NCBI GenBank assembly: GCA_963706325.1
Contig: CAVPLT010000005.1
Span: 1-64,000, forward strand
Source: an uncultured Nitrospiraceae bacterium
GTDB lineage: Bacteria; Nitrospirota; Nitrospiria; Nitrospirales; Nitrospiraceae
DNA length: 64,000 bases
Direction: 5' to 3'
Under the pieces are notes generated by a model that was not told the origin of the DNA, ran no database searches, and saw only the letters and a list, made by a program, of their open reading frames with translations. A program made the translations under genes and the position numbers. The stretch's first letter is position 1; the number at the start of each line of letters is the position of its first letter. Below are positions 50,429 to 63,943 of the stretch, in pieces.

Positions 50429-51460
50429 TTATCTCCCCGACGGAGACAATCCGAGAGCTCGTGTTCGACTTTCTATTGCGCTGGAAAGCAGAGACACAAT
50501 TCTATTTTCGGCCCAAAACCGATCCTCTCCTGGGCGACCTTTTTGAAGAAATCCACAATGCCCGCCGTACCGCGATAGTATCGTCGTGATGTTCGGATTG
50601 CACCTGACCGCCGGTATGTCGAATATGGAGACGGGAATGAAGGGATCATCCTGCGCGGTCATCACCACTGTGGGAACAGCAATGTTGTGCAGTACGTGAC
50701 GGGCTCCAGCACGATCATAGTAATCGGCCACATTGGCATACCCTCCGTTCCGGGCAGTGTAACAGGCATCGAACTGAGTGATGGTCTTGATCGCCCTCAG
50801 TGGGGTCAGGTCCCATTCGTTCGGAAAGAGTTTTGCCTTTCGTCTCATTCGAGCCTTGAGGGCGGAGAGGAAGTGATAATGATAAAGCCAATTTTCGGGC
50901 TGTTCCAAGGCAGCGACGCAGCGTGTCAGATCAATGTTCGGACTGACTGCCACCACGCCCGCCAATGCCGGCTCAGACCCGCCCATTTCACCCGCGGCCT
51001 TTAGAACAAGATTCCCGCCCATCGAATAGCCCACGAGCCAGATGTTAACCAGCCCTTCCCTTGCGGCGAGTTCACGGACAATCGTTCGATAGTCGCTGCT
51101 GAGACCGCTGTTATAGAGCGTGGGTGTAAGGTGGTCGGTGCCTCCGCAAGTACGCTGATTCATCCGTATGACGTTGAAGCCTGCTCTGTAGGCTTTAGAC
51201 GTAATTCCGCGCATGTAGTGAGAGTCTGCGCATCCTTCTAATCCGTGGACTAGCAGGATGGTCGGCGAGGCCCTGGGGTTGTCTTGCCAATGGCAGAATC
51301 CCAAGAGCTGGGTGTCTTCTTCTACGGTGAAGAGGCGCACGCTTGATGGGATACGCCGCCTAGAATGGTTGCGGGGCCAATACCGAGGCACCAGCGTCAT
51401 GAGATGTGGGTTGCGAAGCAGGAGAGGGGGAACGAAGTCATTCATCAGGTTCATTCCCAT
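50429..51460 (-). CDS. YheT-family alpha/beta hydrolase (esterase)
   Basis: NPHLMT, HGLEG, GYSMGG, AQDDPF, GGHCGF. Confidence 0.88.
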   Translation of the reverse strand: MGMNLMNDFVPPLLLRNPHLMTLVPRYWPRNHSRRRIPSSVRLFTVEEDTQLLGFCHWQDNPRASPTILLVHGLEGCADSHYMRGITSKAYRAGFNVIRMNQRTCGGTDHLTPTLYNSGLSSDYRTIVRELAAREGLVNIWLVGYSMGGNLVLKAAGEMGGSEPALAGVVAVSPNIDLTRCVAALEQPENWLYHYHFLSALKARMRRKAKLFPNEWDLTPLRAIKTITQFDACYTARNGGYANVADYYDRAGARHVLHNIAVPTVVMTAQDDPFIPVSIFDIPAVRCNPNITTILSRYGGHCGFLQKGRPGEDRFWAENRIVSLLSSAIESRTRALGLSPSGR

Positions 51461-51992
51461 CCATCTTAAAGGAAAGTCACCGTCTAGTGGAATTGTTTCG
51501 CCTAATGATTGGGGCTATGATCAGGAGTCATGAGGTGGCTGTCGATGAATTGGCCATGTCCGGTATGGCCGGTTCCAACCGAGAAGGTGGGGAGGGTCGT
51601 ATAGTGGAGACGTCCGGGATCTGTGGCCAGGCTATCCGAGTATGGACCGCGGAAGAATATTTTTAATTATTGGTCGAAGGGGCTTTTTATGCAACGACAC
51701 AACCACAGCAAAGAACGTACCCCTCCAGCTGTCGCTATGGCCCCCAGTCTGGCATGCCGACTGATTCAGCCACCCTTGGATCGGCTCGCACTGAGTGGCG
51801 CCTCTTAGGTCGGAACAAGGTTTTTCTCACTCAACATCCCTCCACGTAGCTGGCGATTGGATCTTCTATGACTTGACGAAGATCACCACAAGCCTTTGGC
51901 AGCTTTTTATGATGAGCGAATGAACCTTGCCCGAGGCCGATGCATGCCGGCTTGGCAGCAACTTTTCAATGATGCCGAGGACATTGATGGGT

Positions 51993-53777
51993 TCACATAC
52001 TTCGACCAGCCTTAACCTTCTCGGATTCCAAATTCTGTGAGTCAGTTCCCATGCCAGACGATCGGAACGCTTGGCAAGACTTAAGATACTCGAGGATGGT
52101 CGGCTTCGAGACCTTCAAGGCCTGGAAGGCGTGTCGGATTAAGGTATGAGCCCCCTCGACCTCAGGCAGGATGACTTCCGTTGCTCCCACGTCTTTCAGG
52201 TCTTCAGCCTCGCGAAAGCCATGCGCTCGGGCAAGAAGAGGGGTGCTCTCGTTGAGCTCGCGGAGTCGTCGAAGGGTAAGGGCGGCCTCGTGGATCAATG
52301 GAAGCGCCACAATCACCAGCGCCGCGTGTTGGGCGCCGGCCGCTTTCAGTAATTCCATTTGGGATGCGTCCCCGTAGACGCAGGAAATTCCGCGTCGACG
52401 TAACTGACGAACGTTCTCTGGGTCGCGCTCAATCACGGTGTACGGAAGCTCAAAATGATCGAGGGCGAGCCCCACCGTGCTGCCCATGCGACCAAAACCA
52501 CAGAGCACTACATGTCCGGCTTGGTCGTCAGGAACCCCCCCTTGAATCGGTAAGAAGGCTCGTCCCATTTTGAAGTGCAATGTAGCGATCCACCCCGGCG
52601 CATACCGAACGAGAGGCGCGTTGAGGAGAATACTCAGCAGCGAAGCGGCCAGGGTGGCATTGTAAACATCCTCGCTCACCTGGCCTGCCGTTTTGGCGAC
52701 CTGCACCAACACGAAGGAAAACTCTCCGATCTGCGTGAGACCGACACCCACAAGTAGGGCCGTGCCCCAAGTATAACGAAACAGTCTCACCACCAGCGTC
52801 CAAATGATGAATTTTCCCCCGATAATCAGTCCTAGCATGAGGCCTAGCAGTGGTAGGTTGGCCCATACCACGCGCGGATCGATCAGGATACCGATTGTCA
52901 CAAAGAAAAGCGCCACGAACGCGTCGCGTAGTGAAAGAAGACGGGCTAGCGTTTCATGACCATATTCCGACCCGCTAATGATCAATCCTGCCAGAAACGC
53001 GCCGAGTGCCAGGGATAAACCCGCCAACTGAGTCACGGCTGCCGTCCCGATACCAATAGACAGAGCTACCAATAGAAAGAGTTCCGCATTTTGCGTCCTC
53101 GCGATGCGAGTCAGCAACGGCGGAATAGCTTTGGCCGCGAGATACCCGAAAGGAACCAAAATCAGGACCGCTAGCCATAAGGCCTTCCCAATGGTTGCAA
53201 AGCGGCCCGGTTCCAGAGCGCCGAGCGCCGGGATCAGCACGGTGAGCGCGACCACCGCCAGGTCTTCCACAAGGGTGATCCCGATCATTACCCTGCCATG
53301 CTTGGCACGCAAGTCTCCGCTGTCCAGAAGCAAGCGCGCCAGAACCATCGTGCTGGCCACGGATACCACCGACCCGATTACGACGCTTTGAATCCAACTC
53401 CAACCCACCACATGGCCAAGACCGACGGAGAGGAGAATGGAAAGAAAGATGCCGAGTGGCCCTCCCAGTAGGGCGACCCAGCGAACCCGCAACAAATCGT
53501 TCAGGGAAAATTCAATGCCGATGCAGAACATCAGCAGGATCACGCCAATCTCGGCAAACAATTCGAAACTATGAACATCCGAAATGGAGGGACCGGGAGT
53601 CAGGGGGCTGATCAAAATCCCGCCGAAGACATATCCAAGAATCAGCGGTTGACGAAGGAGATAAGCGGAGGAGCCACCTAGGACGGCGGCAGTAAAGACG
53701 TAAGCGAGATCTCGGAAGAAAATGGGATCAGGGGCCATGGGTCTTCTCACATAGAAGGCCGTACTTTGGTGCAGCAT
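51993..53777 (-). CDS. CPA2 cation:proton antiporter with TrkA-N/RCK domain (YbaL/Kef-like)
   Basis: AEIGVILLMF.IG.EFS, ASTMV, QIGEFSF, CGFGRMG, YGDAS. Confidence 0.9.
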   Translation of the reverse strand: MLHQSTAFYVRRPMAPDPIFFRDLAYVFTAAVLGGSSAYLLRQPLILGYVFGGILISPLTPGPSISDVHSFELFAEIGVILLMFCIGIEFSLNDLLRVRWVALLGGPLGIFLSILLSVGLGHVVGWSWIQSVVIGSVVSVASTMVLARLLLDSGDLRAKHGRVMIGITLVEDLAVVALTVLIPALGALEPGRFATIGKALWLAVLILVPFGYLAAKAIPPLLTRIARTQNAELFLLVALSIGIGTAAVTQLAGLSLALGAFLAGLIISGSEYGHETLARLLSLRDAFVALFFVTIGILIDPRVVWANLPLLGLMLGLIIGGKFIIWTLVVRLFRYTWGTALLVGVGLTQIGEFSFVLVQVAKTAGQVSEDVYNATLAASLLSILLNAPLVRYAPGWIATLHFKMGRAFLPIQGGVPDDQAGHVVLCGFGRMGSTVGLALDHFELPYTVIERDPENVRQLRRRGISCVYGDASQMELLKAAGAQHAALVIVALPLIHEAALTLRRLRELNESTPLLARAHGFREAEDLKDVGATEVILPEVEGAHTLIRHAFQALKVSKPTILEYLKSCQAFRSSGMGTDSQNLESEKVKAGRSM

Positions 53778-54001
53778 AGCATGAACGAGCGCTGACTGAT
53801 GCGATAAGTGAAATGATAAAGGATTGTTTGATGGGGCGATCGCGCTGAATATTTAGCCATTATCAGTCATGGCGGTTTGCATCGCGCAGTTCCTCCGTTG
53901 TTTGATCAGTAGTGCTGTTTTAGCAGCTTATGTAATGACTCTATATGAGCTGATGAATAGCCGCGATAGATAGGAGGCATAAGTTGAATGAAAATGTCTG
54001 A

Positions 54002-54064
54002 CGAAAGGAACGGCGTAATGGCGATTGCACCTGCCGGAGCAATTTGCGAACTTTGCACGCGTGT
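54002..54064 (+). pseudogene. 5' relic (RBS + first codons) of a large serine recombinase related to the one at 62362
   Basis: 49/63 nt identical to 62346-62408. MAIAPAGAICELCTRV vs MPVTPAPTICGLYTRV. Confidence 0.75.
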
Positions 54065-54118
54065 CCCTATGTAAGCTCCCGTAGATCGAGACAGTCATTA
54101 GTAGAACTTTCTGGCACA

Positions 54119-55350
54119 TGACGGTGGCCCCATACTGAGACGGTTCTTAACCAGAGTAGACGGCCTCTTCGACGATCGGTTGTCGCTGACGTTGTGCGAC
54201 ACACTCACGTGGGGTCAGGTGCCCAAGCGAGCTGTGAGGCCGACGCTGATTGTAGTCCACGCGCCAGGCTTCGATAATGGCCTGGGCCTCGGCCAGCGAA
54301 GCGAACTGGTGCACGTTCAAACACTCGTCTCGTAGGCGCCCGTTACACGATTCAATAAAGGCGTTTTTCACGGGTTTGCCCGGTCGAATGAAGTCCAACT
54401 GCACACCGCGCCGATAGGCCCAATCCTCCCAGGCTCGCGATTGAAATTCCGTCCCATGATCGACCGTGATCGAGCGAGGCACCGCTGGTATGTCCAGCAC
54501 ACGATCCAGCACCTGACCGACCGTCTGTCCCGTCATCCGAAACCCTGCCTCTAGTAGGGGACTGTGCCGACTCCAATTATCCACGACCGTCAAGATCCGA
54601 AACGGCCGCCCATCGGCCAGCGTATCATGGACAAAATCCATGCTCCAGCGCTCGGTCGGGCCCACCGGGACTGGAGCCGGGCCTCGGTGCAATGCGATAT
54701 GTTTTCGTCTCCGCACCCGCATCCGTAGCTGTAATCCATCGAGGCGGTAGAGCCGCCGGACGCGTGTGCGATTCACCGGCCAGCCCTCGCGACGCCGTAA
54801 CACCCCGATGCGCATGGAGCCAAATCGAGGTCGGGCATGGGCCAGATCGCGAATGCGCAACCGTCATGCGGACTGAGCCTTAGCCCGACGCCGGCGATAC
54901 CAAGAGGCTCGGCCGAATTGCGCCAACCGACAGGCCCGCAGGCAACTGACGCGGAAGGTATCTTGAAACCAGCCAGCCAGTTCTCGACGGCGTGCGGGCC
55001 TTAGACTTTTTTTCGCAGGGCCTCCGACAGCATATGTTTATCGAGCGAGAGGTCTGCCACTAGCCGTTTGAGTCGGGCGTTTTCCTCTTCCACCTGGCGC
55101 AACCGACGGAGCTCGCTCACGCCCAGATGCGCATACTTCTTTTTCCAGGTGTAGCAGGTGGCCTCGCTGACGCCGAGCTGCCGACAGAGGTCGCCAGTCG
55201 GGGTCCCACTCTCGGCTTGCCGCATGGCATAAACGATCTGCTCTTCAGAGCATCGTGACCGCTTCATCGATCCACTCCTTTCGTCGAGGACCGCCGCAGC
55301 CGCCATGTTACTCTCGTTTTGATCTGCCGTCGCTTTCCGGGGAGACGTCA
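54119..55350 (-). mobile_element. IS3-family (IS407-like) insertion sequence, 1232 bp, degenerate
   Basis: Imperfect terminal IRs TGACGGTGGCCCCATACTGAGACGG / TGACGTCTCCCCGGAAAGCGACGG. Contains orfA and orfB. No target duplication seen. Confidence 0.85.
54147..55267 (-). pseudogene. IS3 transposase orfA/orfB with internal stop
   Basis: orfA (55001-55267, MKRSRCSEEQI) ends at an A7G -1 frameshift motif. orfB has WSMDF, DHGTEF and IESCNGRLRDE but an in-frame TGA at 54864-54866. Confidence 0.85.
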
Positions 55351-55351
55351 C

Positions 55352-55399
55352 AGGCTAGTACAGCACGGTCAGGAGGGTGCCTGCGTGCAGTTTATGTCT
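55352..55399 (+). pseudogene. internal relic of the same recombinase as 54002-54064
   Basis: RLVQHGQEGACVQFMS vs RLVKQPQESACVQFMF at ~62885-62933. Confidence 0.7.
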
Positions 55400-56480
55400 G
55401 TTCCTTCGATCAATATGCAAGCAGAGTAAACGGAAAACATACGTTGCCGCCGTGCGGGAGACCGCCAGACAAGGGTTAATGGCCCACGGCCACCTGTCGG
55501 CTATCGAGCGGTGGAAGTGCCGCCCCCTCAGCAATAAGGCATGAAAAAACAGTTGGAAGTGGAGGAAAGTGAAGTGGTCGTGGTCAATCGGATCCTTCGA
55601 TGGTACCTGCATGTAGATCGGGGCAAGAGCTTGACTTATATGGGGTAGCTGCCTGCTTGAATGAGCAGGGAATCCTTGTTCTGGGCCGTCGATGAAGCAA
55701 GGGCGCATCTGTGAGGTCCTTAACCAACCGCGCCTATATCAGGGAGCACTATTTCAATAAATACGAAAAGCGAGGCGGGGATGTTCGGAGAATGACGCCG
55801 CGTGCGGAATCGGTGTCGGTCAAAGTCTTGTCAATCGTAGCCGGCGATCTTCTTGGCCTTGAAAGAGAAGTTGCAGTCACGATCCCTTCAGCGTGTTGCG
55901 CCACGGGATGTCAATTGTCCTACGTTGCTCAGGAGGCTTCTCAAGTGTGGGGTTTGTGTGGCGGGGATGATGCTGGCAACGGGCAAAGGCGGAGAATATC
56001 GCTATGACGAATGTTCGAGCAGGATTCACAAGAGGAAGGACATCTGCACCAGCAAAAGACTTGCCGAGAGAGCTGGTTGACCGGCTGATCCTTTCATCCT
56101 TGGCTGATCGAGTCTTGACGCTCACACGAGTCCGCACCAGGTTGGAAGGGTTGAGGAAGGGTCTGAAGCGGTCGCAATCCGACCAGGAGGGCAACTTCAA
56201 ACAACTGACCATGGAAGTGGAACGTCTGCAGCCGAGCAGCAAACAGCTCTAGGAGCAGGGAAGAGAAGAGGTACAGCTCTTTACCAGGATTCCACGGGGG
56301 CGTTTGCCTGAAAAGGGTCGGATTTCAGCAAGAAGTATCTCAAGCCTCTCGTCGAGAAGACTCGGTACCTCGGCAAACAGCTGGTGCTGAAGGGCAGCTA
56401 TGCAGCGCTTGCCAGAATAGTAGGTGAGAAAAAGGACGCCCCACAGAGTGAAGTGCCCAGTTTCGGTCTAGGTTGGCTCC
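55400..56480 (+). pseudogene. fragmented large serine recombinase (second, distinct lineage)
   Basis: Across frames: FDQYASRVNGKHTL, KQLEVEESEVVVVNRI, LTNRAYI, LLKCGVC...YRYDECS, LPRELVDRLIL, GSYAALA...VPSFGLGWL. Confidence 0.75.
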
Positions 56481-56484
56481 ACGG
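56470..56484 (+). repeat. putative att site, direct repeat of the tRNA-Asn 3' end region
   Basis: aggttggctcc(a)cgg vs aggttggctcc(c)cgg at 63864-63878. Confidence 0.65.
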
Positions 56485-56657
56485 ATTGTATCCCAGTCGG
56501 ACCCTTCAATTTGAGTTATTGCGCGGCGCAAACGCAACCTAGAATCATAAGGTTTCTGTCCGGAAACAAATAGAAAACGGAACCACGGATAACTCAGCAG
56601 GTCGCAACTCTGAACCATGGTCCGACAGTAGAGGCTACCAAGGGCAATCCCATCATC

Positions 56658-58046
56658 TCATGCCCTTCCCCTCACACTACCTGTGGCGGCCTGTTCTTCA
56701 ATCCCTGGTCGATGAGGATCAAGCGCTTTCAGATCGATCTGATCGGCTAGATGTGCTGCAAGAAACCGGTGGAATGCTGGGCTGTAGTGCAGCTCATCCA
56801 CGACGGCCTTTCGGTGGTGGCCCCAGGTTTCGAAGAGCTCGCCTAAGTAGAGGATGTCTGGATCATGACGCATTCGGGTATAGGTTCCTTCTGCAATGGA
56901 GCGCCATTCAAAGAAATCCTCGGGCAAGGACCGCCGGTAGAGCGCCGGCGGGTAATTAAAGACCGCATGGGGCTGCAGCGCGAAGAGCGGCGTCACGGAA
57001 TACAGCTCAGCGATGGCCTTCGCCAAAGCGCGATTCTGACGAAACATATTGACTTGATAATTCACCACCTGCGCATCCGCCAGGCTTTCTCGCTCTGCCA
57101 CGGTCAGGGAGTGATGCTCTTGCAGGTGAGAGCTCAAGGATCTAGCCAGCCGTACAAAGGGGATCCATCGTAACGTGTCTAAGACGGGGCGGTGAGCCTC
57201 CTCGACCTCCCCAGCGAACTGCAAATTGTGAAACTGGGCTTTGATTCGGTCGTAAAACTCGGGTAGGTCCTGCGTTTCGCCGGTATTGACCCCGTCTAAG
57301 AAGATCGCCACCTGAGGGCGTTGACCACTTTTCAGGAGGTCCATGAGCAGAACCGTCTCTTGGCTTGGATAATAGTAGCCTCGCCCATAGTTGACGACTT
57401 CGATATGGAATCCTAACGACTGAGCACGAGCTCGCTCATTCAGGATTTGGGAAAGATAGGTGGGCCACGTCTGTTCATCGGAGACGTTATAACCGAATGT
57501 CGTACTCCCCCCCAGTGCGAAGACTTTTACGACAGGTAATTTTAGTGCGTTGACGGGGTTGATGGTACGCCGCGTCAAGAATCCTCTAGGGTCCGGTTCA
57601 ACAGTGACTCGCTTGCCCTGGAACGCCGGTTCAGCAAACTCCACCCAGGGTTGATAGGTCATGCCTGCCTTCCCGAGGTCATAAAAATCGTCCAACACAT
57701 CGGCCACATACGCAGGATCACTTTCACCGTAGGCCTGGAAATCAATCCACGCCATCTGATACTCATTTCTTTTCGCTGTGGAAACAGGGGATCCATCGGG
57801 GTTGAAACGGGGAGCCGCTGCGACATTCAGTGCGGCCGTGGCCTCATTGCGGGAGGACCGGGCATCCCGTATCGCATAGACTATGCCCAGCGCTAAGTTG
57901 GCGGCGATTAGTAGAACGATGATGTCGAGGAGGACCACCGCCGTCGTCACATACCGCTGAAACAATGTGCGCCCGGTCAGTCGGCGCACACCACTGAGCA
58001 GAGCAGTCACCCGCGATTCAACAGACCGAGGAAAATGTATATCCAT
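56658..58046 (-). CDS. membrane-anchored SGNH/GDSL hydrolase-like protein (cargo)
   Basis: GGSTTFG, NYGRGYY, DGVN, DELH blocks and an N-terminal TM. Confidence 0.8.
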   Translation of the reverse strand: MDIHFPRSVESRVTALLSGVRRLTGRTLFQRYVTTAVVLLDIIVLLIAANLALGIVYAIRDARSSRNEATAALNVAAAPRFNPDGSPVSTAKRNEYQMAWIDFQAYGESDPAYVADVLDDFYDLGKAGMTYQPWVEFAEPAFQGKRVTVEPDPRGFLTRRTINPVNALKLPVVKVFALGGSTTFGYNVSDEQTWPTYLSQILNERARAQSLGFHIEVVNYGRGYYYPSQETVLLMDLLKSGQRPQVAIFLDGVNTGETQDLPEFYDRIKAQFHNLQFAGEVEEAHRPVLDTLRWIPFVRLARSLSSHLQEHHSLTVAERESLADAQVVNYQVNMFRQNRALAKAIAELYSVTPLFALQPHAVFNYPPALYRRSLPEDFFEWRSIAEGTYTRMRHDPDILYLGELFETWGHHRKAVVDELHYSPAFHRFLAAHLADQIDLKALDPHRPGIEEQAATGSVRGRA

Positions 58047-58494
58047 AGTCCGCTCCTTCGTGCCTGTCCCAGCATAATTACCGTCTCACGATAAGGTGCT
58101 GAAGACTAGTCCCAAAAAGAGTTATGCTCTTCGGGGTTACACCCGGGTACTTCAAAAGGGGGAATCTGCTATAAGGGCTAGGCCTGGCTCACGAAGCTAT
58201 CAGTTCTTCATACATCCACGTCTCACGTCCATCTGAGGCATTTTCCCTCTTTAGAGGCGTGCCGTACCGTTTGCCCACCACCTCCACAACCTCGCCTTGT
58301 AAAACGCTAGGTATGTATGTTGTCCAAATAGCCCCCCAAACTATATCCGTTACGAACCCTGAGGTTTGAGCTCTCTACGGGCCGCCGCCATACCCAGACA
58401 ATAAAATAATGACTTACTGAATTTAAGTATGACCTCCTTGCGATTGCCCGAACTGTTACGCGGTCCCGTACTCCACTGAGTTGGCCGCAGCGAC

Positions 58495-59200
58495 TCAGGC
58501 TTGAAGAATCGGCTCCCAAGGGCTGCCAAGATGATCGGCGTGAAACCGATCACGGCGGCATAGACCAGCAGGCCCGCATTGCCGATCACCCCGTTTTTGT
58601 AGAAGACCGTAGCCCACGAAAAGCAGGACATGCGTGACGGCTCCGGCGCCGAACGCCACGCCAACGACCTTGCCGCTGTACGGTCCGCGAATTGCGCAGG
58701 CGTAAATGACCCAGACGGACAACGGAATAAACAAGCATGACGCTACTCCATAGGCCGGTGTTGTAGCCGCCCTGCAAGATGCCCCCCGCGGTGTGCAGCA
58801 AGTCCGTTGGCAAAGATCAATCCCCAAAAGCTAAGGCCGATGAGAACGTTGCGCCTGCCGAGGTATGCCGCTAGCGGTGCCCCGAACCACATGAGGGCGA
58901 TGTTCACCACCGGGTAGAAGGCCAGCGGAATCGGGCAGTCCGGGTACGGCGGAAAGCCCAGATTCTTGCAGATCATCCCCTGGATTGAGTAGTCGAACCC
59001 AGCACCGGCAGGCTGTATTCCTCGAACTGATGAACCAGGTAGAGCGGCGTGGCGAGCCACCCCAGCCACACTGCATCACGCCATCGCGATACCTTGGTGT
59101 TGCCCCGGAATGTGTCGGTCGTCAGCAGGATGGCGACCATCGGGATTATTCCACCCAACCCTATGAACGGCCAAAAGGTGTAGAACCAGTGTGGTTGCAT
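58495..59200 (-). pseudogene. HXXEE-domain membrane protein, frameshifted
   Basis: LYLVHQFEEY, then YPVVNI, GYNTGLWSS and FIPLSVW in successive frames (about 3 shifts). Confidence 0.7.
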
Positions 59201-59523
59201 GGTGGCTCCCTATTGTTGCAGTGCGTTCCGTTAGGCCGATGACTCGTTAAAATAGCGTTTAGCCCTTAGTTTACAACTGTCAGAAGTGACAGGTGGTATT
59301 GCCGATTGTCTTTTTGTTGATCGGATGCTCTTCGGAATCTCATCACTCGACAATGAGTTAGATTTCCTTGCTACCCTTCTTTTACTAATCCTAGGTTTAG
59401 AAGAGAAGCTCACGGAGGGGGAAGGAAAATGTATATAGAGCTTGTCGAAGACGAAAAAGTAGGAAGCTTAATATCACTTTGAAAGGTGCTGACTCCCTGG
59501 ACTGGACAAAGACCCGAATTACC

Positions 59524-59798
59524 CTTGATCCTACTTTGACCATATAGATCAAGTGAAGCGGGGGCTGCGCCCCCGAGCCCCCCGGCCGTCCGGCCCCGGC
59601 AGTCCGGAGCGGCCGGCGGGCCTTCGTGGTCCGCATAATCTGCGTCTGTGTGATAACCCTGGTCATGGATGTCTCTATTCTTCAAACCTACTAGTGCGGT
59701 GACTCGCCATGGGGACGGCCAAGCTACGCATCGCCGTCATCATTTGATATTACCGTTCATTAGCCTCCCTCACACCCCCTGAAAGCCATCAGGGGGTG
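59524..59798. other. cluster of hairpins, candidate rolling-circle origin (dso/sso)
   Basis: cttgatc/gatcaag (59524-53), cgggggc-tgc-gcccccg (59559-75), ccggccg..cggccgg (~59582-59615), caccccctga/tcagggggtg (59773-98). An AT-rich tract lies just left. Confidence 0.45.
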
Positions 59799-59823
59799 AG
59801 CGGGTGCGCTGTAAGAGAGGAGC

Positions 59824-60091
59824 TCACGGTGAAGCGGTTAGAGACGGAATTTGCGTGCTCGTGAGTCCCGCGCAGGAGCAACAGAGCCAATATCTCTGTG
59901 CGACGCCGTCGCTCTGGTAGCAGATGCGACCCCACACCCGATCAGCCTGACAGAACTCACAGAGCCGTTCTTTGCTGTGTCTCAGAGCAGAGCCAGCCCT
60001 TCCGAGCCCGATCATAAACCGCACCAGTTCGTCCGCAACAGGTGGGACCGAACAGGGAATTGATTGTTCTGACGCACGTATTGCAGCTCAT
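59824..60091 (-). CDS. small Cys-rich (Zn-finger-like) protein, one frameshift
   Basis: ATGA overlap with the Rep stop. MSCNTC...TCCG...WLC then CEFC...WLCCSC. Confidence 0.45.
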
Positions 60092-60838
60092 GGCTGACTC
60101 GAAGTCAGGCCTTTGCCGAGGATGAGTTGCAAAATAAACCCGTTATAGAGAATCGCATGACCTGCCAGCAGGTCTTCCCAGGTTTTGACCAGCACGACGC
60201 GAGGGATTTCTAATTCCCCTCGAATCCGACGGAAGACATTACGGCTGGACCATTGGTTTCTCATCTCTTCCCACAGAGTGCTCATCGGGAAGCCCAGCGA
60301 GCGCTTCCAGGACCAACACATGTTGACGTACCCGGATTGATCCTGGACATACTGGCTGATGACATATCGGCTCAAGCGATTGCGAGACCGTTGACCCGCC
60401 TCATAGGCCTTAATCCAGACCACTGGGGCGCCATGCAGGGCTTCCCACTGGGCGGAAAGCCAGGCTGGGCAATCCAGAAGCGCCGATGACGTTCGCCATC
60501 TGGGACCCGCCAAGCCCAAAAGATATGCAGCACTCCATGGCCCTCTTCTGTGCGCACTTGGTAATATTCCAAACCTCGATACCCGAGCTGGCGCTCGATT
60601 CGTTGGCGAAGTTGCTTGTGATGATAGGTCAGTTTGTCGGCCTGTCCGCCGTCCGCCGTAGAGAGCGTGACCCAGAGCACCTGGAACTGATGGGCTTCCC
60701 AAAACCACAAGAGCGAGCGAATCCGCTGATAGCCTCGCTTCTGCTTACGGGACCATTCCGGTCTCGACAGGACGACGACCGGATGGCTAAGGCATCTGAG
60801 GATTTGACTCGAACCGAGAGGAGTATCGGCTCAGACAT
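60088..60838 (-). pseudogene. rolling-circle replication initiator-like (HUH) protein, frameshifted
   Basis: Motif I WVTLST, degenerate motif II EEGHGVLHIFW, W...HG, motif III LSRYVISQY. Split over ORFs 60372..60710 and 60088..60708. Confidence 0.55.
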
Positions 60839-61089
60839 GAAAAGTCTCCAGCGGTGAGGGTTGGGACGAGAGAGCCGGTAGAAGCGGCTCTCTGGGGTAA
60901 GTGAAAGGACCGCAGGCTCTGACGCGAGCCGTCGCGCCCCTGGAGAAGCAGCAGACCGCAACAAGTAGGTGCGAGGCTTCTTCACGCGCCTGCGGATCGA
61001 TTGGAACGAAATGAATTTCAATGTTCATTGTGATGCCCATTGGGCAACATATCGGTACAGCAAGGACTCTAGGGTCCAATGTGAATTCG

Positions 61090-61302
61090 GTCTGTAACTG
61101 AAACAGTTCATCGACGGTGCAGCCGAAAATACTGCGCCAGTTGCAAGGCCACGAGGAGGCTGGGAACTGCCTTTCCCTGCTCAAGCTCTGGTGACATAGG
61201 AACGGTTCACCCGTATTCTTCGCGCAAGGGCAGCCTTTGATAGGCCGCGTTGAGCTTGCCGGGCTCGCCATTCTTTAAGGTGGTTCTTAACATCATCATC
61301 AT
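61090..61302 (-). pseudogene. small XRE/Cro-like HTH protein, frameshifted
   Basis: KNHLKEWR..LSKAALARRIRVNRSYVTR / LEQGKAVPSLLVALQLAQYF / GCTVDELFQL. GGAGG RBS. Confidence 0.7.
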
Positions 61303-61318
61303 CCTCCTCCGTGCGGGC

Positions 61319-61347
61319 ACTATAGAGAGCCGTTGCCCAACGGTCAA
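61319..61347 (-). promoter_or_regulatory. leftward sigma70 promoter overlapped by palindromic operator
   Basis: TTGACC-N17-TATAGT on the minus strand. Perfect CCGTTG-CC-CAACGG at 61330-61343. Confidence 0.65.
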
Positions 61348-61476
61348 TAATGGGCTCATTTTTGTTGACTGCAGGACAACATTTCAGGTATATAAGGGCC
61401 CTATGAACAGTCCAGAGCTGAACCGAGACACCCCGCAGGCGCCCGCACGGGTTTCGCGCCTTGGTCAAAGAGGCAA

Positions 61477-61786
61477 ATGGAAACGGTCAACCTCAGTCTC
61501 AGGACTGTGGCCAGTGAAGCCGGCATTTCGCCGGCCTATCTTTCTCGGCTGTTATCGGGCGAACGGGGACTCCCGCCAGACGATACCCTTATTCTGAAGT
61601 TGGCAGAGGTACTTCACGTCGATCCGCCTGAACGGCTTCTTGTCGAAGCGAAGCGCGTTCCCAGATTTGCTGCTCCCGGCACTGTTGAGTGCGCACGAAG
61701 CGGTCTCGAAGGCAGATCTTAAGGAGGCGATGAAGCAGTTACAGGCGGTGATCCTGAACCAGAGGAAAAAGAGAGGGCGTCGATGA
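61477..61786 (+). pseudogene. XRE-family repressor (ImmR-like), frameshifted
   Basis: LSLRTVASEAGISPAYLSRLLSGERG. Correcting two extra bases extends it to an ATGA overlap with the next gene. Confidence 0.7.
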
Positions 61787-62330
61787 AGACGGTATCTGGA
61801 CTAATCGCCTCGTTGATTCATTGGCTGCGACGACCGGAACGCTTTATTCAGAAACTGCAGAGCCGTGTATCCTCTATGTCAGGACATTCCCTTTTCACCA
61901 TCAGGAAGAAGCCGCCGCGAATCAGGGGGTGGAAGTCCTGGAGACTACGTTCGGACCTAGGATCGAGGGCATCACCACACGTGACGAAGCCCAGGTCATG
62001 ATTGTGCTTCGTCGTGGACTCAATCCCTTAAATCGGCAGTTTGTCGTAGCGCACGAACTAGGGCATGTCCAGTTGCACCTTCCATGAAATGAGACAACAC
62101 CGATGCTCAGCCTATCACTTGGTCAGCAGTGATCATCGAGACATCGAGGCAGACGCGTTATGCCCTGGCTATGCCTGGTGGGATCATTGCCGACGGAACG
62201 GCTTAGCACACGAGGTGCTTACTCTACGTCCTTAACAACCGAGGAATGGCATGGCGGGCATTCCGCGTCGTCTGTTATCTATCCGGGTATCACCAGAGAA
62301 TTCGCCTGGCGAATAGGCTGGAGCGAGCCC
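61783..62330 (+). pseudogene. ImmA/IrrE-family metallopeptidase, frameshifted
   Basis: RQFVVAHELGHV and downstream IEADA. 3' end uncertain. Confidence 0.7.
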
Positions 62331-62361
62331 TGTCAGGCCTCCAGGCGAAAGGAACAGCATA

Positions 62362-63909
62362 ATGCCGGTTACACCTGCTCCTACAATTTGCGGCCTCTAC
62401 ACGCGTGTATCCACTCGCAATCAAGCCGACACGGAGTACAGTTCCCTCGAAACCCAACGTGAAAAGCTGGAGGCGTACTGTAAGAGCCAGGAACAGTACG
62501 TCGTCTATCGAGTCTATGAGGATGCTGGCTTTTCGGCGGACACGATGAATCGACCCGCCTTGAAAGAGTTGCTTCAAGATATTCGGGCTGGTCGGATTAC
62601 CTGCGTTCTGGCCTATAAAATTGATCGACTGACCCGATCAGTGAAGGATTTCCATGTCCTGATGGATTTATTTGACCGACATGGGGCCAAATTTGTGTCC
62701 ATCACGCAGAGCCTCGATACGCATCACCCGATGGGACGGTTGCTGCGGAATATTTTGTTGGATTTTGCCCAGTTTGAACGGGAAATGACGGCGGATCGTA
62801 CCCGAGACAAAATGCAGCAACGGGCGACCAAAGGACTGTGGAATGGCGGCAATGATTCCCTTTGGTTATCAGAATGACGAAAAACGTTTAGTGAAGCAGC
62901 CTCAGGAGTCGGCCTGCGTTGCAGTTTATGTTTCAATTCTTCGCTCAAGATCCCTCACTGACCCGCCTACGCGCAGAATTACATCGTCGTGGATGGTATT
63001 CACGCTCTGGCAAGCCCTGGGGCAAGATGACGATCGATTACATTCTGAGAAACCCCACCTATCAGGGCAAAGTCCATTTTAACGATCAGGTTTTCCAGGG
63101 CGAGCATGAGGCCATCGTGGAGGAGGGGCTCTTCCATAAAGTGCAATCGATGACCCGAGAACATAGCCGAGCTGAAACGAAGATCCAGAGGATCTTCCTT
63201 CTCAAGGGGCTACTGAAATGCAGTGTATGTGACTCAGTAATGACGCCCCACTACACGCAGAAGCGTCGAAAGGATCAGTCGATTCATCGCATCGCATACT
63301 ACCGCTGCACCAAGACCATGCATCAGAACAATGCAGTCTGCACGGTCAAGGCCCTCAATGCGGACACGGTAGAGCGTCAGGTTATTGAATACCTGTCCAC
63401 TCTGAGTCAGCAGGCGGATTGGGTAAAAGGGACCGTGGAGGAATTGAACCGCGACCAAAAGGAGCGAGTGCGACCACTGGAACAGGAAGCCATTCGCCTT
63501 AGGGCGAGCCTGGACAGGCTTGGAAAGAGAAATAGATAGACTGGTGCTAGGGGTGGGGCAGGGGACGGTGTCAGTCCAACGCCTTGAACAGGAGATGCAC
63601 CGTCAGCATAAAGAGCAGCAGGGCATAGAAGCCCAGTACCAAGCCGTGCAACGGCAGATCCAAGAGCATTCCGCGAGGGAGTACGATTCAGAGATCGTTC
63701 TACGAAACCTTAAGGATTTTCAAAGGGTTTTTGCAGCGTTGCTACCGAAAGAACAGATGGAGGTTCTTCGGTGTCTCGTGAGGGATATCATCGTATACCC
63801 CGACAAGCTCGTTTTCAATATCTTCGAGCTTGCCGAGGTAGGGACGAGTTCGCAGCAGCGTAAAGGTTGGCTCCCCGGGCAGGACTCGAACCTGCGACCA
63901 GCCGGTTAA
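62362..63909 (+). pseudogene. large serine recombinase (integrase), three apparent +1 frameshifts
   Basis: YTRVST catalytic Ser, DRLTRS, recombinase domain, LLKCSVC...YYRC Zn ribbon, coiled coil. The 3' end runs antisense into the tRNA. Confidence 0.85.
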
Positions 63910-63943
63910 CAGCCGGCTGCTCTACCAACTGAGCTACCGGGGA
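63868..63943 (-). tRNA. tRNA-Asn (GTT)
   Basis: TCCCCGG acceptor stem, AGCTCAGTTGGTAGAGC D-arm, GCCGG-CTGTTAA-CCGGC anticodon arm, GGTTCGAGTCC, encoded CCA. 76 nt. Confidence 0.97.

Follow-up and report, generated by a model that had tools for sequence, protein, structure and literature searches.

The integrase IntP of phage Mx8 belongs to the tyrosine recombinase family. It provides the tested case in that family of an integrase whose C-terminus changes (PMC6070905), and among serine recombinases the 3' end of dsiB was reported always to overlap attL, with the speculation that only the circle form is fully functional (McMurdie 2011, PMC3146451). Serine recombinases were described in the Islander paper of 2014 as not known to target tRNA genes (PMC4383910). 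The question of how large serine integrases set their direction is central both to the family and to genome-editing tools; the known cases use a separate cofactor. Here, we analysed a stretch of 64,000 nucleotides (the window; contig C5:1-64000) from a 4.2 Mb assembly of 8 contigs belonging to an uncultured Nitrospiraceae bacterium, in which a 7,394 bp element (56474-63874, between two core copies) carries a large serine integrase, termed SR-A, whose gene runs into tRNA-Asn. We are highly confident that excision would swap the C-terminus of this integrase and that the replacement tail, stored at the other end of the element, is selected as protein.

The SR-A gene occupies 62362..63909 on the (+) strand, encodes a protein of 514 aa in relatives and ends WLPGQDSNLRPAG*. 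Its product is a large serine recombinase, with the Pfam domains Resolvase, Recombinase and Zn_ribbon_recom above cut-off in the pieces found in the window and in one intact relative, and its fold matched TP901-1 (Z 21.0, rmsd 3.4, 135 aligned) besides Bxb1, SprA and LI; its closest integrase relatives reside in Nitrospira genomes. The last open reading frame (ORF) of the gene, 63520-63909, ends KGWLPGQDSNLRPAG*, the end being read antisense from the target gene tRNA-Asn(GTT) at 63868-63943 on the (-) strand, the sole tRNA-Asn of the assembly, with the stop at 63909. This tRNA-derived end varies with the host, down to WLRR*. An earlier sequence-only reading of the window had placed the att core inside the integrase frame with a tail antisense from tRNA-Asn, and all of its coordinates hold. 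The 11-mer core AGGTTGGCTCC is present at 56470-56480 and 63864-63874, and the tRNA's CCA, read antisense, supplies the Trp codon TGG at 63868-70. The recurrence of the core at 56470-80 and the open tail behind it, with its stop at 56540-42, were also confirmed, each being weak when taken alone. As stand-alone proof the 11-mer repeat was rejected, because it has six exact copies in the 4.2-Mb genome and 34 of 100 shuffles of the window held two or more matches at one mismatch.

Within the 11 bp shared here, the family-wide core is the 7-bp TGGCTCC (56474-56480 in the left att core copy, 56470..56480), the antisense of the GGAGCCA end of tRNA-Asn, so that the element sits in the last seven bases of the tRNA. 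The right core copy (63864-63874) and the P' arm with its GTTCG (63848-63852) together occupy 63848..63874. TGGCTCC is the sole block common to both ends in all 22 listed element pairs. Among 18 tRNA-Asn loci of the same genus, eight were empty, eight held SR-A (two of them decayed) and two held integrases of another clade, termed SR-B, with TGGCTCC as the joint in every case; the flanks of empty sites recur unchanged up to this heptamer at the left junctions of filled ones (L010 against G005, L018 against L144). Judged from these alignments, the relatives fix the element boundary at the TGGCTCC core, and the comparison with island-free relatives on which the sequence-only reading had staked its boundary thus places it there and not elsewhere. 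The left junction at 56470-56480 is also crossed by a short-read contig (55769-57192) with 2 differences in 1,424 bases, from a run that is maybe related to the source sample and not fully independent. The overlap is the rule among relatives: of 52 SR-A ends from metagenomes, 46 continue into tRNA-type sequence, and tails derived from a tRNA close at least 95 of 120 homologous proteins.

Several loci depart from this plan. Close SR-A relatives at L172 and L195 end in tRNA-Gln instead of tRNA-Asn, and by these ends the SR-A clade appears to switch targets. At L034:11504 (G009) the core is TGTCTCC, with which tRNA-Asn would end ACA and not CCA, and the integrase reads CLPG; its left junction was not found within 40 kb. 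At L163:4069 and L165:9061 the integrase ends in an incomplete copy of tRNA-Asn, with the full tRNA-Asn call following some 310 bp later, and at several Acidobacteria-like loci (L040 and L041 among them) tRNA-Asn was missed by ARAGORN and is possibly intron-split. Between the hydrolase gene and the tRNA of L004 and L005 (G007, G001), just the last 50-150 SR-A codons are left, remnants that read as scars of deleted elements.

The stored tail, WLHGLYPSRTLQFELLRGANAT*, forms together with the P arm of attP the stretch 56474..56542 on the (+) strand, where CGGAC at 56498-56502 mirrors GTTCG in the integrase gene. Its support lies in the conservation of the peptide in 15 distinct relatives and not in its being open, as an open tail of 20 codons is by itself not beyond chance. 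Left junctions were picked by their left context alone (hydrolase flank or integrase end) from 80 metagenome loci and fetched genome stretches; the 21 SR-A rows were reduced to 18 by removing one duplicate, a decayed G001 site lying 310 bp away from the integrase and an additional TGGCTCC in L153, and one second site was dropped from five SR-B rows. All 18 SR-A junctions (15 distinct) read WLxx[LPM]Y[PS]xRT[LIV]xF, in which Y6, R9, T10 and F13 are invariant and use 2, 4, 4 and 2 codons respectively. Over codons 4-14, the ratio of nonsynonymous to synonymous polymorphism (pN/pS) was 0.36 when read in the integrase frame; the two alternative forward frames gave 1.11 and 2.12, the reverse strand gave 0.60-1.60, and not one of 1000 column shuffles attained the observed value. 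Codons 11-15, which lie past +30 bp, had a ratio of 0.40, and codons 16-25 had 0.94. When changes were counted along a tree built from the cognate integrases, the tail had 30/17/62 at codon positions 1/2/3 and the downstream stretch 60/47/67, counts from related sequences that do not give a strict probability. None of the 15 tails has a stop before codon 18 in the integrase frame whereas the other frames do have such stops, and the tails range in length from 15 to 36 with freely varying last residues (AT, SC, NY, KT, SA, AR). A motif of their own, W-x-C-x-V, is retained in the four distinct SR-B arms, and tails similar to that of SR-A occur naturally in distant proteins of the SR-A family (L187, P0095). 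These comparisons indicate that the stored tail is under purifying selection in the reading frame of the integrase and that each integrase clade has a tail specific to it. The tail frame has no gene of its own in the chromosome, so selection must act when the frame is joined to an integrase; moreover, the tails follow the clade of the element that they head and not the left neighbour, which points to the circle.

The DNA around the core carries a second signal. Inside the gene, GTTCG at -20..-16 has its mirror image, with a 1-bp asymmetry, in the CGNAC that the P arm holds at +24..+28, and the T-loop CGAAC of the tRNA lies at +19..+23 (63887-63891), closer to the core by 5 bp than this P-arm copy; a 5-bp shift between attP and attB has been described for the LI integrase (PMC3783163). 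A short core, a pseudo-symmetric attP and a zinc-domain motif 4-5 bp nearer the centre in attB, the arrangement by which serine integrases are judged, all appear at this locus at the level of sequence, and the RT codons of the tail would do double duty as DNA motif and peptide. An AlphaFold2 model was made of L187, a naturally occurring relative of 520 aa that shares about 60% identity with SR-A and whose P-type tail is of unknown context. The model (mean pLDDT 80, pTM 0.42) shows a strand at 509-515 preceded by a disordered linker at 492-501 (pLDDT <50). The alignment with solved integrases extends to L187 residues 485-492, apart from one row with rmsd 23 that reaches 510, and some 12 residues separate the end of the canonical integrase fold from the core; on this model the swap therefore leaves every canonical domain in place, the tail being an extra piece. 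In the SPbeta integrase the extreme C-terminus has been described as part of the directionality toggle (10.1101/2025.01.03.631226, citing Abe 2021).

With the boundary at the core and the tail selected in the integrase frame, the proposal of the sequence-only reading that the excised circle encodes a different C-terminus is supported, and this circle-borne C-terminus is very likely one under selection. Excision would swap the tRNA-derived scrap for the conserved tail stored at the other end of the element, and the tail may add a beta-strand to the enzyme. Circles would form, and the tailed integrase, which only the circle would encode, would integrate; the integrated copy, in effect tail-less, would carry out excision, each isoform presumably being made only in the state that needs its reaction. 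Nine junction sets (8 distinct) are single elements whose sole integrase bears the tRNA tail, and excision there would therefore have to use the tail-less form. We put at slightly under an even chance that this amounts to a true directionality switch, in which the tailed form favours integration and the tail-less form excision. Still more tentative, though possible, is the wider idea that a large clade of tRNA-targeting serine integrases sets direction without a separate factor by rewriting its own gene, and that the tail of a tandem newcomer locks or re-tunes the integrase of the resident.

Several results weigh against this account. Selection says that the tail matters and not what it does, and the 0 of 1000 column shuffles that reached the observed pN/pS come from related tails and do not give a strict probability. 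The tail strand of L187 is of modest confidence (block pLDDT 58 and 62, pTM 0.42), and the SPbeta toggle residues F532/F534 for the most part fall around model residue 488 in the alignment, outside the tail, and favour excision in the account of that preprint. The integrase of the window is broken as assembled. Two small ORFs of no family in the module of L036 could be an ordinary directionality factor. The circle junction was not listed in four soil runs, which were searched as contigs only, where rare forms are dropped; a unitig ending exactly at 56480 and a joint of 56409 to 63867 with 23 letters on its short side are hints only. Phage and plasmid catalogues held no close relative (all <60%) and hence no free circular form. 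Apart from these points, a scan of viral contigs with a single-protein query returned nothing, and with an alignment query it returned 80 distant relatives (31-43% identity); one of them has its end close to a tRNA, the T-loop overlap is absent from all 80, and the design is therefore confined to the closer clade. A promoter scan near the left junction found none.

The same data on tail selection fit an attenuator of the Mx8 type, in which the swap is real and the tail selected, with the tail raising only overall activity or folding, the weaker integrated form keeping the element stable and a separate small factor setting direction. In Mx8, integration alters the 3' end of int without inactivation and changes efficiency on different sites (PMC6070905), and the small module ORFs without a family could supply the factor; the clade-specific tails fit attenuator and switch alike, and nothing here separates the two. 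We regard such an attenuator as a serious possibility that we would nevertheless rather doubt. It is unlikely, in our estimate, that the tailed form alone works, the integrated copy being dead and excision being left to a tailed enzyme from a circle or a grafted tandem neighbour. This was the idea raised for dsiB (McMurdie 2011, PMC3146451), and stacks with intact grafted integrases that might serve as such neighbours exist (G004, G021, L143, L144, L150); against it, the integrated form keeps all canonical domains, most grafts join different clades, and single elements that differ in cargo size and have an intact 514-aa gene occur commonly, which implies that no neighbour is needed for escape.

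The two remaining explanations make the peptide a degradation signal or a by-product. C-terminal tags regulate some phage integrases, and the tail or the tRNA-derived scrap might likewise set the half-life of the enzyme. The last residues are free to vary at lengths of 15 to 36, codons 16-25 are neutral, and the conserved part is internal and strand-like, all of which makes a protease tag very improbable; the stability role suggested by the sequence-only reading is disfavoured, since residues after about position 15 are unconstrained. A constraint on DNA only, with tail conservation mirroring an attP motif bound by the integrase, would explain why CGNAC at +24 to +28, the mirror of GTTCG and 5 bp outside the T-loop CGAAC, falls on the invariant RT codons, at a spacing that agrees with the attP/attB shift of the LI integrase (PMC3783163). 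Variation falls at third codon positions, however, with all four Arg CGN and all four Thr codons in use, the codons of the hydrophobic residue 11 and of F13 are placed past +30 bp, outside a 25-bp half-site, and the lack of early stops is confined to the integrase frame of the 15 tails. The codon-level data have largely refuted this explanation already, and we give it the smallest probability of all.

The left end of the SR-A element abuts an older insertion. A decayed large serine recombinase of the SR-B clade, with a Zn_ribbon_recom domain and 75-79% DNA identity to L017/L019, occupies 55345..56480 on the (+) strand as the right end of an older element and ends EVPSFGLGWL at the left core; its breaks are real, near-identical short-read contigs showing no gaps. 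The ORF at 56384-56542 continues from there to end GWLHGLYPSRTLQFELLRGANAT*, with TAG at 56540-42. The sequence-only reading had noted the same codon phase (GWL) on the left, and the phase is present; it stems from the decayed SR-B integrase end, and as evidence it was rejected. Since the SR-B relatives L017 and L019 end VPSFGLDWLPGQDSNLRPAG* directly at tRNA-Asn, the SR-A element entered between the older SR-B element and the tRNA, giving a tandem stack at this locus. The island of the sequence-only reading is a real element, and its tandem structure and the splitting of its integrase over frames had been missed. Three elements are stacked in G004 in the order SR-B, SR-A, SR-B. Three-element stacks of this or the reverse order, SR-A/SR-B/SR-A, are seen in L047 and L048 of G004 and in L144/L151, and their intact integrases bear the tail of the other clade; tandem stacks with intact grafted integrases were found in G004, G021, L143, L144 and L150. 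In such a stack the tail of the newcomer is grafted onto the integrase of its older neighbour, as on the SR-B relic here.

As assembled, SR-A of the window is split over several frames by three +1 insertions near 62854, 62919 and 63520, which are probably long-read assembly errors. Against G018, the stretch 61400-63909 has 16 single-base insertions and zero deletions, and soil contigs near-identical to the window lack one base across 63520 (two runs) and two across 62862-63624 (one run); six relatives have an intact 514-aa SR-A with the same tRNA-derived end (one with CLPG for WLPG). Contigs over 59500-63140 differ from the window by several percent, where, against the error reading, a strain difference is possible. 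Dense single-base insertions across 58000-63909 disrupt the majority of the element's genes, and the flanks appear clean; this part is likely poorly polished, perhaps because the element is carried by part of the population only.

The remainder of the element comprises cargo and a replication and regulation module. The cargo encodes a 462-aa membrane-anchored GDSL/SGNH-like protein (56658..58046, (-); Pfam Lipase_GDSL, weak and below cut-off) and an HXXEE-like membrane protein lying in several frames here (ORFs at 58350..59200, (-); weak PF13787, E 0.043). The left edge of the conserved module is a GC-rich hairpin (59525..59640) that is 89-91% identical in L036-L038 and was reached by 0/200 shuffles (z -3.3), a candidate replication or transfer origin. 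Its counterpart at L036:6408-6491, conserved at about 90%, stands beside the Rep-like gene. In the window the Rep-like gene is frameshifted (60088..60710, (-)), an intact 255-aa homologue being present in L036; it had no Pfam, PHROG or NCBIfam match, and an ESM Atlas feature hit to PF23343 REP_ORF2-G2P (0.97) accompanies its likely assignment as a rolling-circle initiator. A small divergent helix-turn-helix (HTH) protein of Cro-like type (61181..61468, (-)) has a weak Pfam HTH_3 match, with PHROG repressor matches for its L036 homologue. It is followed by an HTH repressor and then an M78/IrrE-type metallopeptidase (61477..62361, (+); Pfam), frameshifted here with intact 136-aa and 189-aa homologues in L036, a pair that we take to be ImmR/ImmA-like. 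An integrative mobilizable element would combine an integrase with a relaxase or Rep and an origin and would lack genes for conjugation and capsids; here a Rep-like ORF and the conserved hairpin accompany the integrase, the ORFs scanned included no virion or conjugation genes, and the element may be of this kind. The repressor/M78 pair, the Rep-like ORF and the hairpin suggest a small, damage-inducible, mobilizable element, in which the repressor/peptidase pair would control expression and the Rep-like protein would copy the circle.

On the chromosomal side, the flank is marked by an alpha/beta hydrolase gene (50429..51460, (-); Pfam) matched by the empty loci L002, L009 and L018; in relatives whose site is empty, the distance between this gene and tRNA-Asn ranges from a few hundred bp to about 900 bp. 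The stretch 51460-54146 had no match in the stretches of relatives, bar 63-65 bp of an integrase start, and includes a gene for a Kef-type Na+/H+ exchanger-TrkA_N antiporter (51993..53777, (-); Pfam) that is likely cargo of the older insertion or insertions. The integrase start is a 5' fragment of an SR-A-like gene (54002..54064, (+); 78% identity to 62346-62408 and 85% to G018/G005) left by a third element that is mostly deleted. Between it and the SR-B relic lies an insertion sequence with orfA/orfB (54119..55350, (-), ends approximate; Pfam HTH_Tnp_1 and rve), presumably of IS3 type. Across 54002-55350 the 63-bp start of the third integrase abuts the insertion sequence, a target duplication is not clear and the SR-B relic is without its N-terminus, an arrangement likely produced by deletion mediated by the insertion sequence. 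The left end of the older element or elements was not found, 51400-54150 being without a core or tail remnant.

What is new here is codon-level selection on a swapped serine-integrase tail, for which the comparisons argue strongly; the design with attP in the integrase itself has precedents in Mx8 IntP and DsiB. The phage-integrase precedent invoked by the sequence-only reading fits for Mx8, and the serine-family DsiB (PMC3146451) had been missed. We found no literature on a conserved or tested swapped serine-integrase tail, subscription journals being outside reach. By term search the main text of Durrant 2022 (PMC10083194) is without 'tRNA' and 'C-termin', and the tycheposon preprint, in its accessible part, has some large serine recombinases among its elements and no mention of 'attP'. 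If the switch is true, a 13-residue motif attached and removed by recombination itself would be a cofactor-free switch, and the SR-A swap offers a concrete test of the 2011 DsiB speculation. Integrases mined from chromosomes would end in a C-terminus that derives from the tRNA and is the wrong one, and as tools for insertion they may work less well. Besides, serine integrases commonly use tRNA CCA ends in this nitrifier genus.

Compared with the described systems, SR-A stands nearest to the ssrA islands of DsiB, with which it shares a large serine recombinase whose 3' end lies over the att site at a stable-RNA gene, a stop codon outside the island and the occurrence of islands in tandem. The target there is ssrA (tmRNA) whereas SR-A uses the CCA end of tRNA-Asn, tmRNA being on another contig here; the DsiB islands have a second recombinase, DsiA, whereas the SR-A element has one, and a second recombinase of this type was not found in the genome. 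The DsiB module of dsiA, recF, parB and mom is replaced by one of Rep-like, HTH, HTH, M78 peptidase and integrase genes, and the DsiB C-termini were seen as divergent by their authors, a conserved circle tail not being shown in that account, unlike the SR-A tail with its apparent codon-level selection. Mx8 IntP resembles SR-A in having attP inside the integrase gene and in acquiring a new 3' end on integration, a change that in Mx8 does not inactivate the enzyme (PMC6070905); it comes from a phage, whereas SR-A is the serine integrase of a small non-phage element in which about 13-22 terminal residues are swapped. The 'suicidal' integrases of archaeal SSV (PMC7253208) also hold the recombination site inside the integrase frame, and these belong to the tyrosine family with the gene split in two, in contrast to the serine integrase SR-A with all canonical domains intact. 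Among NCBIfam families, SR-A scored 212, 146 and 122 bits against Ccr cut-offs of 900, 900 and 700, which leaves it outside Ccr; its best match was CcrB/CcrC of SCCmec (212 bits), whose target and module differ. SCCmec forms tandem composite islands at one site. With LI/A118, Bxb1, phiC31 and SPbeta SprA, SR-A shares catalytic, recombinase and zinc-ribbon/coiled-coil domains, a short core and a P/B motif shift of about 5 bp; in phage-type large serine integrases a separate recombination directionality factor protein sets direction, and the folds of these four end where SR-A still has a linker and a swappable tail.

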